Shown one piece after another: positions 4,429 through 44,431 of a DNA stretch of 64,000 bases; position 1 is the stretch's first letter, and every line of letters starts with the position of its first letter. Under the pieces are notes generated by a model. It saw nothing but the letters and a program-made list of their open reading frames with translations. It did no database searches and was not told the origin of the DNA. The position numbers and the translations under genes are program-made. Source of the DNA: a virus. The stretch is from positions 1 through 64,000 of IMG/VR virus record IMGVR_UViG_3300036851_000098; one strand, 5' to 3'.

Positions 4429-4460
4429 TCGCGGGCGAATCATCGCCTATAATGAGACCC
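4429..4460 (+). promoter_or_regulatory. Phage promoter motif copy 1
   Basis: TCGCG(4429)-N14-TATAAT(4448)-GAGACCC. Confidence 0.8.
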
Positions 4461-5339: not shown

Positions 5340-5368
5340 TCGCGTATTTTTCATGTTGTATAATGAAA
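5340..5368 (+). promoter_or_regulatory. Phage promoter motif copy 3
   Basis: TCGCG(5340)-N14-TATAAT(5359)-GAAA. Confidence 0.8.
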
Positions 5369-5458
5369 GAAGTAGCTCTAAGCAATACGTTAAGTCGGAT
5401 TCGTACCCGAGAAATATTACGGTAAAAGTCCGTCATAGAGCAATGCTTCTATTTTTTT
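5365..5458 (+). ncRNA. Putative small structured RNA A
   Basis: AGAAGTA/TGCTTCT and GCTCTA/TAGAGC close a multi-hairpin body; T7 tail; no RBS or ORF. Confidence 0.6.
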
Positions 5459-6635: not shown

Positions 6636-6665
6636 CTGTGAGACCCCAAACTAAGGAGAGTAGTA

Positions 6666-6899
6666 ATGCAGAGTTCGCAACACCCACTCACCAACTTCTA
6701 CAACAAGGTTAAGACTCACAGTCCCATTTTGGGAGTCTTGATCAGTGAAGACGTGGTTCTGCTCGCCTTGGGCGCTCTGACTGACGAGCATGAGCCTGTC
6801 CAAGAATCTGTAGACCGGCTACGTGAGATGACCAACATGATGCCCGAGGACATTAGGATCATCCGAGAGGACGCTCTCGCGAAGCTCGGATATCTATGA
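6666..6899 (+). CDS. Hypothetical protein
   Basis: Leader GAGACCCCAAACTAAGGAG. Confidence 0.65.
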   Translation: MQSSQHPLTNFYNKVKTHSPILGVLISEDVVLLALGALTDEHEPVQESVDRLREMTNMMPEDIRIIREDALAKLGYL

Positions 6900-7399
6900 T
6901 CGACGGTCGACCGGACGGAGTAACCATGATTGCCAGTTGGTGCGTTCCTTTCGTTCTCCGCGAGTCTCATACATTGAACGTTCTTCAAAGCCGTCTACAC
7001 GGTTTAGACCACTGGTTTCGTGTCTGGCAGAACGGACAGATGTTGGCAAACATGGAAATCGACGTAGATCTTGAAGTCCTTGCCCTGTACGCGTTATTTC
7101 ACGACTCGATGCGTATGAACGAAGGTTCAGATCCGAGTCATGGAATGCGCGGCTTCAGGTTGTGGGAACGTGTCAACCAGCGCCAAGAAGTCGAAGACCT
7201 TCTCAGCGAACGACAGCGAGAGTTATTTTTCGAGGTATGTACTCAACATAGTGATGGGCTTCGAAGTACTGATCCAACTATCGCCGCTTGCTGGGATGCC
7301 GATCGACTGGATCTCCATCGCAAAGGGATCTGGCCGGATGCTCGTTTCATGAGCACCCAAGCAGGACTAAGTCTTGTCATGACTCGGATTACCTCATAA
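6896..7399 (+). CDS. HD-domain phosphohydrolase
   Basis: HGLDHW...ALFHDS...HG...CWDADRLDL HD motif set. Confidence 0.8.
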   Translation: MIDGRPDGVTMIASWCVPFVLRESHTLNVLQSRLHGLDHWFRVWQNGQMLANMEIDVDLEVLALYALFHDSMRMNEGSDPSHGMRGFRLWERVNQRQEVEDLLSERQRELFFEVCTQHSDGLRSTDPTIAACWDADRLDLHRKGIWPDARFMSTQAGLSLVMTRITS

Positions 7400-7421: not shown

Positions 7422-7595
7422 ATGAGCGAAGACCAAGAGAAGCATGTGGGCAAGATCAGGCATGATCGAAACAATCAGAAGGATTCGGCGATCGCGATGA
7501 AGAAGAAGGGTCACTCGAATGCAGTCATTGCTGCGATTCTTGGCATCTCAGAAAGCACCGTTCAAGAGGTGCTCAAGCCTAAGAAGGATAAGTAG
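7422..7595 (+). CDS. 57-aa HTH protein
   Basis: RBS CAGGAG; KGHSNAVIAAILGISESTVQEVLKP helix-turn-helix. Confidence 0.7.
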   Translation: MSEDQEKHVGKIRHDRNNQKDSAIAMKKKGHSNAVIAAILGISESTVQEVLKPKKDK

Positions 7596-7596
7596 T

Positions 7597-7626
7597 TCGC
7601 GAAAAATTCACGTCATAAAATGAGAA
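7597..7626 (+). promoter_or_regulatory. Phage promoter motif copy 7
   Basis: TCGCG(7597)-N14-TAAAAT(7616)-GAGAA. Confidence 0.75.
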
Positions 7627-7730
7627 GAACCCTATCTATGTGTTTATGATCTCACAGGCACTCATAAACTAAATAGCAAAGATAGGGGGACCATGATCCC
7701 ACAGGCACTCATGGTCTCTTCTTATTTTTT
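7622..7730 (+). ncRNA. Putative small RNA B with twin loops
   Basis: Repeats ATGATCYCACAGGCACTCAT at 7646 and 7693, each capping its own stem; closed by GAGAAGA/TCTTCTT; T tail. Confidence 0.7.
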
Positions 7731-7756
7731 CTGAGACCCCAAATTAGGAGGACGAA

Positions 7757-8077
7757 GTGATTCACGAGGAACGGATCCTACAGATTGATGTGGAGGTGAA
7801 AAAACTAAGAAGCAATATTCGTGAACTGTTGAAAGAACGGCGTAGTCTCGTACGATCGGAGTATACGGGATCAGCAAAAACCTGGAGAAACGAGATTATC
7901 ACAATTCTTGACTGCTATCCAGGAGCATCTCGACAGAACATCGTAGATGGACTAAGTTCTTATATTTCCTCAAAGATGCTTACAAACGTGCTTACCACGT
8001 TGCGGCGTCATGGGGAAATCGAGAATCGAGGAACAAAGAAAAATCCGCAGTGGTATATCAAAGAGACCCCAAACTAG
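7757..8077 (+). CDS. Coiled-coil plus winged-HTH protein
   Basis: LTNVLTTLRRHGEIENRG...WYI winged-helix pattern; RBS AGGAGG. Confidence 0.55.
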   Translation: MIHEERILQIDVEVKKLRSNIRELLKERRSLVRSEYTGSAKTWRNEIITILDCYPGASRQNIVDGLSSYISSKMLTNVLTTLRRHGEIENRGTKKNPQWYIKETPN

Positions 8078-8086
8078 GAGGACGTC

Positions 8087-9159: not shown

Positions 9160-9179
9160 ACATGCTGTATAATGAAAGG
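9149..9179 (+). promoter_or_regulatory. Phage promoter motif copy 8
   Basis: TCGCG(9149)-N14-TATAAT(9168)-GAAAGG. Confidence 0.8.
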
Positions 9180-9301
9180 TATCAACTCGATACTGTTGTG
9201 TAACGAACTCTGAGCGCAGAGTCCAGACCTTTCTTCCACGTCCCTTTACGGGGCGACTAGCCTTAACCGGCGAAAGCCCCGTTCACGGGCTCATATTTTT
9301 T
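9174..9301 (+). ncRNA. Putative small structured RNA C
   Basis: GAAAGGT/ACCTTTC closing stem, hairpins GTATC/GATAC and ACTCTG/CAGAGT, further hairpins and a T tail; no ORF. Confidence 0.6.
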
Positions 9302-10490: not shown

Positions 10491-10553
10491 TCGCGGCAAA
10501 ATCACGGCACTTAATAGGAGGGCCCAGAGTACGTTTCTGGGCCTTCTATTTTT
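10491..10553 (+). ncRNA. Promoter motif copy 9 plus ~40-nt single-hairpin RNA D
   Basis: TCGCG(10491)-N14-CTTAAT then AATAGGAGGGCCCAGA/TCTGGGCCTTCTATT-TTT. Confidence 0.5.
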
Positions 10554-14980: not shown

Positions 14981-15096
14981 CGCGTGAAAATCACTCTCTT
15001 TAATAGAAGAATAGATAATTTCCGCGCTTCCTTTGGAAGCAGTCTACTGGTGGCGGAATTAAAAAGACTATTACCAGCATCTGCTCTTCTCTTTTT
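14980..15096 (+). ncRNA. Promoter motif copy 11 plus small structured RNA E
   Basis: TCGCG(14980)-N14-TTTAAT; AGAAGA/TCTTCT closing stem, TTCCGC/GCGGAA, GCTTCC/GGAAGC, T tail. Confidence 0.6.
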
Positions 15097-31934: not shown

Positions 31935-32032
31935 TTTGCAGGGAGAAAAGGCGCCTTCGGCGCGGAAATCAACTGCCCTTGCATAAGACACACGGTTCAG
32001 ATACTGGGATATTTAAAAAGAAAGGAATCGCC

Positions 32033-32281
32033 ATGGGACTAGCTCTCACTCGTAAGCGCAATCAGTCGATCGTGCTTTTTCAAGATGGAGAGACGCTTTG
32101 CCGGGTTACCGTCGTGGAGATCGGCGACGGGAAGGTTAAGTTGGGATTCGAGGCGCCCAAGGATGTGACGATCTTGCGCGAAGAGATCATCGATCGGACT
32201 CCGACTGTCGGTCCAGATAAGAACGATAACTCCATCAACGACGATTTCGTCGAGCGCGTCAAGGCATATTTGCCTGAATAG
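32033..32281 (+). CDS. csrA: Carbon storage regulator CsrA homolog
   Basis: L.LTRK..QSIV......VTVVEI..GKVKLGFEAPKDVTILREEI. Confidence 0.85.
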   Translation: MGLALTRKRNQSIVLFQDGETLCRVTVVEIGDGKVKLGFEAPKDVTILREEIIDRTPTVGPDKNDNSINDDFVERVKAYLPE

Positions 32282-32282
32282 T

Positions 32283-32334
32283 TCGTGGGGTTTCACTGCG
32301 CATAATAGAAGATTTAACCGTCTTCTCTTTTTTT
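32283..32334 (+). promoter_or_regulatory. Degenerate promoter motif plus tiny hairpin/terminator
   Basis: TCGTG-N13-CATAAT-AGAAGA..TCTTCT-C-T7. Confidence 0.5.
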
Positions 32335-32379
32335 AAACAGATATTGGGCTTCCAAATTTAGTCTATAGAAAGGGCCATA

Positions 32380-44366: not shown

Positions 44367-44431
44367 TCGTGGAGAAATCGCGCCATATAATAGAAGGAGG
44401 GTACAATATCCCTTCTGCTTCTTTCTTTTTT
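44367..44431 (+). promoter_or_regulatory. Promoter motif variant plus hairpin ahead of the nuclease-RNAP operon
   Basis: TCGTG(44367)-N14-TATAAT(44386)-AGAAGG, then hairpin and T tract. Confidence 0.65.

Follow-up and report, generated by a model that had tools for sequence, protein, structure and literature searches.

A putative end-closed small RNA with twin hairpin heads in an uncultured soil phage, and units of similar architecture in its relatives

The closest described counterparts of the element studied here come from several unrelated systems. 6C RNA of Actinobacteria (RF01066) has two hairpins with the same loop motif, functions in an Hfq-free actinobacterial setting and ends in a terminator. 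CsrB and RsmZ repeat a hairpin motif that serves several copies of a dimeric protein. In the ANTAR dual-hairpin, lambda N/boxB and HK022 put systems hairpins are found between promoter and terminator, ToxI, CptI and pseudo-ToxI loci consist of a promoter, repeated RNA units, a terminator and a downstream gene, and the pRNA of phi29 is a phage RNA of ~120 nt with paired 5' and 3' ends, a three-way junction and two functional loops.

Here we explore an ORF-less gap in the genome of an uncultured soil phage that shows a partial likeness to each of these. The window, i.e. the whole stretch of DNA that was analysed, comprises positions 1 to 64,000 (64,000 nucleotides) of IMG/VR record IMGVR_UViG_3300036851_000098. 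A listing of sequencing runs comprised one DNA run, of a soil metagenome that is probably the source, and no RNA run. The 6C loops are C-rich seeds, whereas the loop found here reads UCYCACAGGCAC and the conserved unit includes four stem pairs; the RNA studied is moreover phage-encoded, lacks an Rfam match up to E 10 and no target was found for it. As for CsrB and RsmZ, the phage does have a CsrA gene, but the loops contain no GGA, there are two sites and the design is also present in relatives that lack CsrA. Twin hairpins could serve a dimeric regulator, as in the antitermination systems, but ANTAR hairpins have hexaloops (A1, G4) and the second one competes with the terminator, whereas 12-nt loops are here nested inside the terminator stem; the hairpins of put and boxB are not identical twins, and the polymerase in question is here probably the phage's own. 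Unlike in ToxI and CptI, 20-nt heads are repeated rather than whole tandem units, and, unlike in type III systems, the downstream gene is a winged-helix-like orphan without a ToxN/AbiQ/CptN-type nuclease domain. The loops of phi29 pRNA are mutually complementary, which allows ring formation, whereas those described here are identical and lack self-complementarity; the type of phage and the position in the genome differ as well.

The twin heads and their fold

The repeat consists of two 20-mers (7646-7665 and 7693-7712) that are identical at 19 of their 20 positions. The sequence ATGATCYCACAGGCACTCAT is found in the window at 7646 and 7693 only, even when up to 3 mismatches are allowed, against a chance expectation of 0.01, and the complete virus record of 79,866 bp has two forward copies and no reverse copy of the 12-nt loop. 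The heads are carried by 8-bp stems (Table 1) that have 5 pairs in common and differ at 3, all three differences being compensated on both sides (from hairpin 1 to hairpin 2, U-A becomes A-U once and C-G twice). The + strand RNA corresponding to 7596-7756 folds at -47.2 kcal/mol with z = -4.78, a value that none of 200 shuffles equalled, and the - strand counterpart has z = -3.0. For the unit as such the folding energy is -37.2 kcal/mol on the + strand versus -34.5 kcal/mol on the - strand; several units of relatives fold better on the - strand, and a crude count over the lower stems of the units gives 12 G.U versus 11 A.C.

Table 1. Coordinates and description of features at the studied locus (numbering of the window) and of units in related phages (numbering of the record named).
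Feature	Coordinates	Strand	Description
57-aa HTH gene	7422..7595	+	stop codon ends 1 nt 5' of the promoter; Pfam HTH_23 at E 1.7e-5, above the cut-off
Clade-specific promoter	7597..7621	+	TCGCG (7597-7601), 14-nt spacer including TTCACG, -10-like TAAAAT (7616-7621)
P1 5' strand, GAGAAGA	7622..7628	+	pairs with 7717-7723 in MFE and centroid folds; G7622 is the predicted RNA 5' end
P2 arm	7630..7687	+	CCCTATCT (7630-7637) pairs with AGATAGGG (7680-7687), around hairpin 1 only
Hairpin 1	7642..7669	+	stem GTTTATGA/TCATAAAC; head copy 1 at 7646-7665; loop 7650-7661, UCUCACAGGCAC
Hairpin 2 (P3)	7689..7716	+	stem GACCATGA/TCATGGTC; head copy 2 at 7693-7712; loop 7697-7708, UCCCACAGGCAC
P1 3' strand, TCTTCTT	7717..7723	+	in MFE and centroid folds
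U-tract ATTTTTTC (AUUUUUU)	7724..7731	+	read from the sequence; predicted RNA 3' end; intrinsic-terminator-like with P1 or hairpin 2
Standard leader GAGACCCCAAATTAGGAGGACG / GAGACCCCAAATTAGGAGG with the Shine-Dalgarno of the next gene	7733..7756	+	follows the U-tract here; in ordinary units directly after TATAAT
106-aa gene	7757..8077	+	GTG start; coiled-coil N-terminus; weak winged-helix match, Pfam HxlR at E 0.044 only
Other promoter-led end-closed RNAs	5365-5458, 9174-9301, 10516-10553	+	first bases pair with bases 5' of the U-tract
Other promoter-led end-closed RNAs	15005-15095, 32308-32335, 44392-44431	+	first bases pair with bases 5' of the U-tract
Unit of relative G002			head UGCAUUGCGC twice
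Unit of relative G001			head AGCGCGGCUUUGCCGUACU (19-mer) twice
Unit of relative L326			head GCGCUGCAUUAGCAGUACU (19-mer) twice; homologous to the G001 head, GCGGC/GCCGU becoming GCUGC/GCAGU
Units of relative L310			three neighbouring units with 2, 2 and 3 heads
Gordonia phage Rickmore	L445 293-398		cloverleaf-like RNA, head CCGCCGUUUGGGUAG three times, each time on a different stem
Perkunas, Artorias	L446 293-395 (Perkunas)		Rickmore scaffold, three copies of (C/A)CCUUUAUGAGGAG
Avazak, Captrips	L450/L451		same scaffold, three copies of CCCGUUAUACGGAG
Rhodococcus phage ReqiPepy6	L443 2890-3215 = NC_023735.1 48442-48787		both head types, in tandem modules
RNAs shared by ReqiPepy6 and Tanis	L443 2340-2450 and L444 2335-2440; L443 2893-2995 and L444 2902-3010		no Rfam match

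Since P1 (7622-7628/7717-7723) closes the whole RNA, the topology is that of a three-way junction. In our model the 20-nt head is built from four AUGA/UCAU base pairs, an internal loop that is asymmetric, a mini-helix (CY/GG) and a tip of CACA. The two copies differ at one position only, U7652 versus C7699, which falls at the Y of this possible 2-bp mini-helix around CACA; since U.G there replaces C-G, the difference is compatible with a + strand RNA.

A sequence-only reading of the locus had described an ORF-less cassette that displays the same loop twice on divergent stems inside a closed scaffold, and had seen in this the mark of selection at the RNA level. Most of that description holds. 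The + strand of the gap lacks any ORF of 25 aa or more, the heads and their compensated stems are as given above, and identical heads on covarying stems, together with a closing stem that spans from promoter to U-tract, agree with RNA-level selection. The scaffold needs correction: GAGAAGA/TCTTCTT closes the whole RNA but CCCTATCT/AGATAGGG encloses hairpin 1 only. Two micro-ORFs that start at the ATGs of the heads (MISQALIN and MIPQALMVSSYFF, 8 and 13 codons) were rejected as candidates, as they lack a usable Shine-Dalgarno, their starts lie within stems and other heads have no ATG.

The search for homologues of loop and RNA that the same reading had proposed came back empty. Rfam has no family in the window at gathering score, in a 500-nt region at E-values up to 10 or in six related loci. 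Screens for the head in IMG/VR (by means of a 15-base pattern and a twin 9-mer pattern) as well as in the JGI and ENA metagenomes resulted in chance matches only, all without hairpin context, and blastn with the head identified no homologue among cultured phages. A 17-mer search of the 185,579 species genomes of GTDB gave 63 single, scattered matches, with no arrays or multi-copy matches, where ~70 were estimated by chance. In the two nearest relatives the element is missing from the corresponding position, and neither the head nor the three-way scaffold has a sequence or scaffold homologue among other multi-head RNAs. Since the head has no homologue in any of these collections, the covariation of the studied element is covariation within one molecule, between two copies. 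Even so we consider it very probable that the element is a real structured RNA.

Promoter, RNA ends and neighbouring genes

The promoter motif TCGCG-N14-TATAAT has about 16 copies in the window, on the + strand only (at 4429, 5171, 5340, 5681, 6009, 6323, 7597 and 9149, and further on at 10491, 14594, 14980, 15096, 32283, 33762, 34055 and 44367). TATAAT is usually followed by GAGACCC or a similar purine-rich start, a short leader, a Shine-Dalgarno and the start codon. Two related IMG/VR phages, which were found via the HD-domain protein encoded at 6896-7399 (~70% identity), have 13 copies each, on the gene strand only, while reversed-pattern controls gave 0, and at least 85 IMG/VR stretches match a stricter promoter pattern. 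Of 164 distinct clade promoters, 19 are followed by a closing stem that opens within 1-4 nt of the -10 and runs up to a T-tract, against 1.6 in shuffles (maximum 4) and 1 when the start was shifted to +9..+12. Since these closing stems begin at +1 to +4, transcription would start immediately after TATAAT. In this the clade promoter would differ from sigma-70 promoters and rather be likened to compact phage-polymerase promoters; a sigma-70-like start ~7 nt after the -10 would leave P1 outside the RNA. The YonO paper provides no promoter or terminator rules.

At the other end, AUUUUUU directly follows hairpin 2 (7689-7716) and the 3' strand of P1, as in an intrinsic terminator, albeit an atypical one in that P1 encloses ~88 nt of folded RNA; it was missed by a simple scan because its loop exceeds 8 nt. 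Further promoter-led RNAs of the window are closed in the same manner (Table 1), some of which are just a hairpin (28-40 nt) ahead of a gene. The unit at 15005-15095 is directly followed by the next promoter, at 15096. Where a promoter is found directly 3' of the unit, as is the case for the one at 15005-15095 and in G001, Rickmore and ReqiPepy6, the RNA itself would be the product. We think it likely that the unit at 7622-7731 is a discrete promoter-to-terminator transcript, the transcription and ends of which we infer from the DNA.

The phage is an actinophage and belongs to the actinophage supercluster with a YonO/QDE-1-like RNA polymerase. Its 954-aa phage polymerase (45275-48139) shares ~52% identity with the polymerases of Streptomyces, Arthrobacter and Gordonia phages and its terminase is 80% identical to the terminases of Gordonia DJ, Rhodococcus ReqiPepy6 and Streptomyces phages. 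The CsrA homologue at 31979-32281 scores 55.9 bits with Pfam and has kept the LTR...REEI motifs, hence the phage indeed encodes its own CsrA, as the sequence-only reading had stated.

Both proteins encoded beside the RNA look like DNA binders. The small 57-aa HTH protein weakly matches (E 0.001) the HTH found C-terminally in phage polymerase family phrog_4291 and may represent a promoter-recognition-type module that stands on its own. In the studied phage, as in most multi-head units examined, the gene that ends at the RNA promoter codes for a small protein with a DNA-binding domain of the HTH or NUMOD-like kind. For the 106-aa protein no relatives turned up in IMG/VR or in a set of 5.8 billion proteins; over 50 aa it is 40% identical to the product of a 70-aa gene in relative G001, which is likewise located behind a promoter and an end-closed RNA. 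Since the 106-aa gene has no promoter of its own, it would be reachable only by read-through. A 22-nt leader, GAGACCCCAAAYTAGGAGGACG, is found at 7733-7754 and at 8063-8084 and thereby flanks the 106-aa gene exactly, the right copy overlapping the stop codon, and a leader similar to it is found at 6641. These flanks look like a cassette junction derived from recombination between shared leaders.

Recurrence and concerted evolution in relatives

A twin-repeat survey, for which only repeats of at least 13 nt in hairpins were used, shows the same design in promoter units of uncultured relatives: 2-3 identical hairpin heads, different self-complementary stems and a closing stem that connects +1 to the U-tract (Table 1). 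At least 10 independent units contain identical heads. Between relatives the inside of such units is freely replaced, and several heads of sister units have loops of just 3-5 nt. In the studied unit, the clade promoter is found directly 5', +1 pairs up to the U-tract and two near-identical heads are placed on differing stems; by our comparisons it joins the class by architecture only, its head sequence being seen nowhere else. A second RNA domain of Perkunas (L446 ~400-470) displays the G002 head GCAUUGCGC (L277(-) 1548-1617) on two of its hairpins, in the form AGCAUUG(C/U)GCA, which suggests some head types are common to distant phages.

The membrane-protein family phrog_27818 adjoins twin units in four uncultured relatives and led to the RNAs of cultured phages. 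The studied phage has no phrog_27818 gene in its genome, and its 57-aa HTH protein shows no detectable homology to the phrog_27818 proteins found beside multi-head RNAs elsewhere (probability 1.6%). DrGrey, ReqiPepy6 and Secretariat do not contain the strict TCGCG promoter pattern but use the related form ACACG-N3-TATAAT, and it is behind this form that the multi-head RNAs of the cultured Gordonia and Rhodococcus phages are located. ReqiPepy6 shares two more structured intergenic RNAs with Gordonia phage Tanis, which flank the phrog_27818 membrane-protein gene on its left and right.

Comparison of the cultured phages shows how heads change. Between Perkunas/Artorias and Avazak/Captrips the head helix goes from CCUU/GAGG to CCGU/ACGG in all three copies, i.e. 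one double compensatory change plus U.G to U-A, and one lower stem of the DJ phages goes from G.U to A-U. This is most simply explained as concerted evolution of a small hairpin, at the RNA level and on the + strand. The multi-head regions of these genomes either carry no annotation or overlap with ORF calls that are doubtful; Artorias, Avazak and Captrips have an annotated 'hypothetical protein' whose start falls inside the RNA unit, which may be a miscall. A scan of IMG/VR for twins of the head type designated B returned ReqiPepy6 itself only. In 151 genomes sampled from the order around a Mycobacterium MAG, an order which presumably includes Gordonia and Rhodococcus, head B was furthermore found on neither strand, whereas the controls had 17 hits, which makes host mimicry or host antisense less likely for head B. 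The genome announcement of DJ phage Vardy describes a 50-bp intergenic, promoter-like TATAAT motif that was read as sigma-70 type (PMC9671010). It resembles the motif described here in being a repeated intergenic promoter-like sequence in the central small-gene region of a phage of the same supercluster, but the RNAs behind the motif go unmentioned (PMC9671010).

Multi-head display RNAs appear as an undescribed class, characterized by an end-to-end closed junction scaffold with 2-3 identical heads on non-identical stems. Heads seem to be swapped between phages and kept identical within one RNA.

A possible role and its competitors

Our preferred explanation, to which we assign a probability of roughly 0.45, is that the gap encodes a multivalent, probably protein-binding, end-closed small RNA of the multi-head class that also acts as a leaky terminator; partner and function we infer. 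An RNA of ~103-110 nt would be transcribed from the phage's own repeated promoter (7597-7621), starting at or beside G7622. Its first 7 nt would pair with the 7 nt that precede the U-tract and thereby form the three-way junction; since P1 joins the start of the RNA to the U-tract, the closing stem would double as terminator and protect both ends. Each of the two arms would present the same 20-nt head, to which one partner, probably a protein, would bind as a dimer or in two copies; the RNA may act as its decoy or scaffold. Since no promoter follows the RNA, its terminator must also limit expression of the 106-aa gene, which it would throttle. That heads bind a protein multivalently is possible rather than probable. 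Small apical hairpins that are set off by internal loops, identical within an RNA and exchanged between RNAs, would fit a multimeric partner, and they do so better than base-pairing seeds would, given the loops of just 3-5 nt in several heads. Heads are very different between phages and need not all share one kind of partner. A bolder and rather doubtful extension is that modular display RNAs form a head-borne specificity code read by a partner that recognises RNA, such as a decoyed host defence nuclease or a phage-encoded regulator of the phage polymerase, in which case 7622-7731 would be a new specificity.

The main rival is a role in cis, as nut-like site or attenuator, in which a promoter-proximal terminator gates the 106-aa gene and the genes behind it, and in which the heads would be nut-like or ANTAR-like sites where a factor that controls the level of read-through meets the nascent RNA. 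This is supported by the lack of a promoter between the U-tract and the GTG at 7757, with a normal leader (GAGACCCC...) following the U-tract, and by the minimal promoter-hairpin-T-tract units that precede other genes here (10491, 32283, 44367) as well as the orthologues of those genes in relatives (L275, L288); the G001 homologue of the 106-aa gene, behind its promoter and end-closed RNA, fits too. We nevertheless consider it unlikely, since many relatives have a fresh promoter directly after the multi-head RNA, which makes read-through control unneeded there, since the heads are nested inside the terminator stem and do not compete with the terminator, unlike ANTAR or RAT antiterminators, and since no candidate factor is known. 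The possibility that the element has no function other than termination, its apical part being recently duplicated and the twin heads lacking a function of their own, has in its favour that the inner part of units is freely replaced between relatives and that the studied head is an orphan. It is hard to reconcile with the divergence of the lower stems (3 of 4 variable pairs) beside 20-nt heads that stayed identical at 19 of 20 positions, or with the identical heads in at least 10 independent units and their concerted change in DJ phages, and it is given a chance below one in ten. DNA operators, which would be bound as 20-bp repeats by the adjacent 57-aa HTH or 106-aa winged-helix protein, for instance in autoregulation by roadblock between promoter and gene, would render the fold incidental. 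The position of the repeats between a promoter and a putative DNA-binding gene, directly behind another HTH gene, points in that direction, as do the HTH or NUMOD-like domain genes that abut the multi-head units of relatives; co-evolving operators would also change all copies in concert, and the fold is not strand-asymmetric. This alternative is weakened, to the point of being improbable, by several facts: operators have no need for flanks that differ between copies yet are self-complementary, as they are in every unit; the closing stem runs from the first transcribed base to the U-tract; head B keeps a U.G pair, which as a palindrome would be a T:G mismatch, in four phages and has U-A in two others; and the 12 central bases are conserved without being palindromic, which leaves ATGA/TCAT half-sites 16 bp apart centre to centre.

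The remaining explanations concern partners that the sequence-only reading had put forward, none of which gained from the searches. In Hfq-free Gram-positive and actinobacterial sRNAs hairpin loops serve as seeds, and 12-nt loops are long enough for kissing contacts, so that the identical loops could act in trans as a double antisense seed against host or phage mRNAs with GUGCCUGUGRGA, as the twin C-rich loops of 6C RNA do. We regard this as improbable: the phage has no complement longer than 9 nt, the best duplexes with its 175 translation-start regions fall within the shuffled range for three of four probes while the fourth, the hairpin-1 20-mer only, is marginal (4 of 100 shuffles were as good), the 63 GTDB matches are single, scattered and about as many as estimated by chance, the 3-5 nt loops of sister units are too short for seeds, and head B is unmatched on both strands of the 151 actinobacterial genomes sampled. 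An RNA anti-CRISPR found no backing in the same 17-mer search of 185,579 species genomes, which yielded neither arrays nor multi-copy matches. Neither did a pseudo-ToxI or type III antitoxin, since there is no toxin gene nearby and just 20 of each 47 nt are repeated. Least probable, in fact very improbable, is a CsrB-type sponge that titrates the phage's own CsrA. A true homologue is indeed present, and a CsrA dimer bridges two hairpin sites that are 10-63 nt apart, a range that includes the 47 nt between the twin sites. Against this, the near-invariant GGA is absent from the loop, which reads CAGGCAC, there are two sites only versus many in CsrB-type RNAs, five relatives without CsrA have the same RNA design and the csrA gene is 24 kb away.

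The small RNAs that phages encode have been charted poorly, and those of actinophages next to not at all. The multi-head RNAs constitute a recurring, unannotated design, promoter-led, with paired ends and several identical heads subject to concerted evolution. Since the design is present in easily grown Gordonia and Rhodococcus phages, the class is directly testable. A TATAAT motif with immediate transcription start bears on how the phage's unusual single-chain polymerase finds its genes. If the heads are indeed specificity modules for a protein partner, these RNAs would represent a new kind of phage regulatory or counter-defence RNA.
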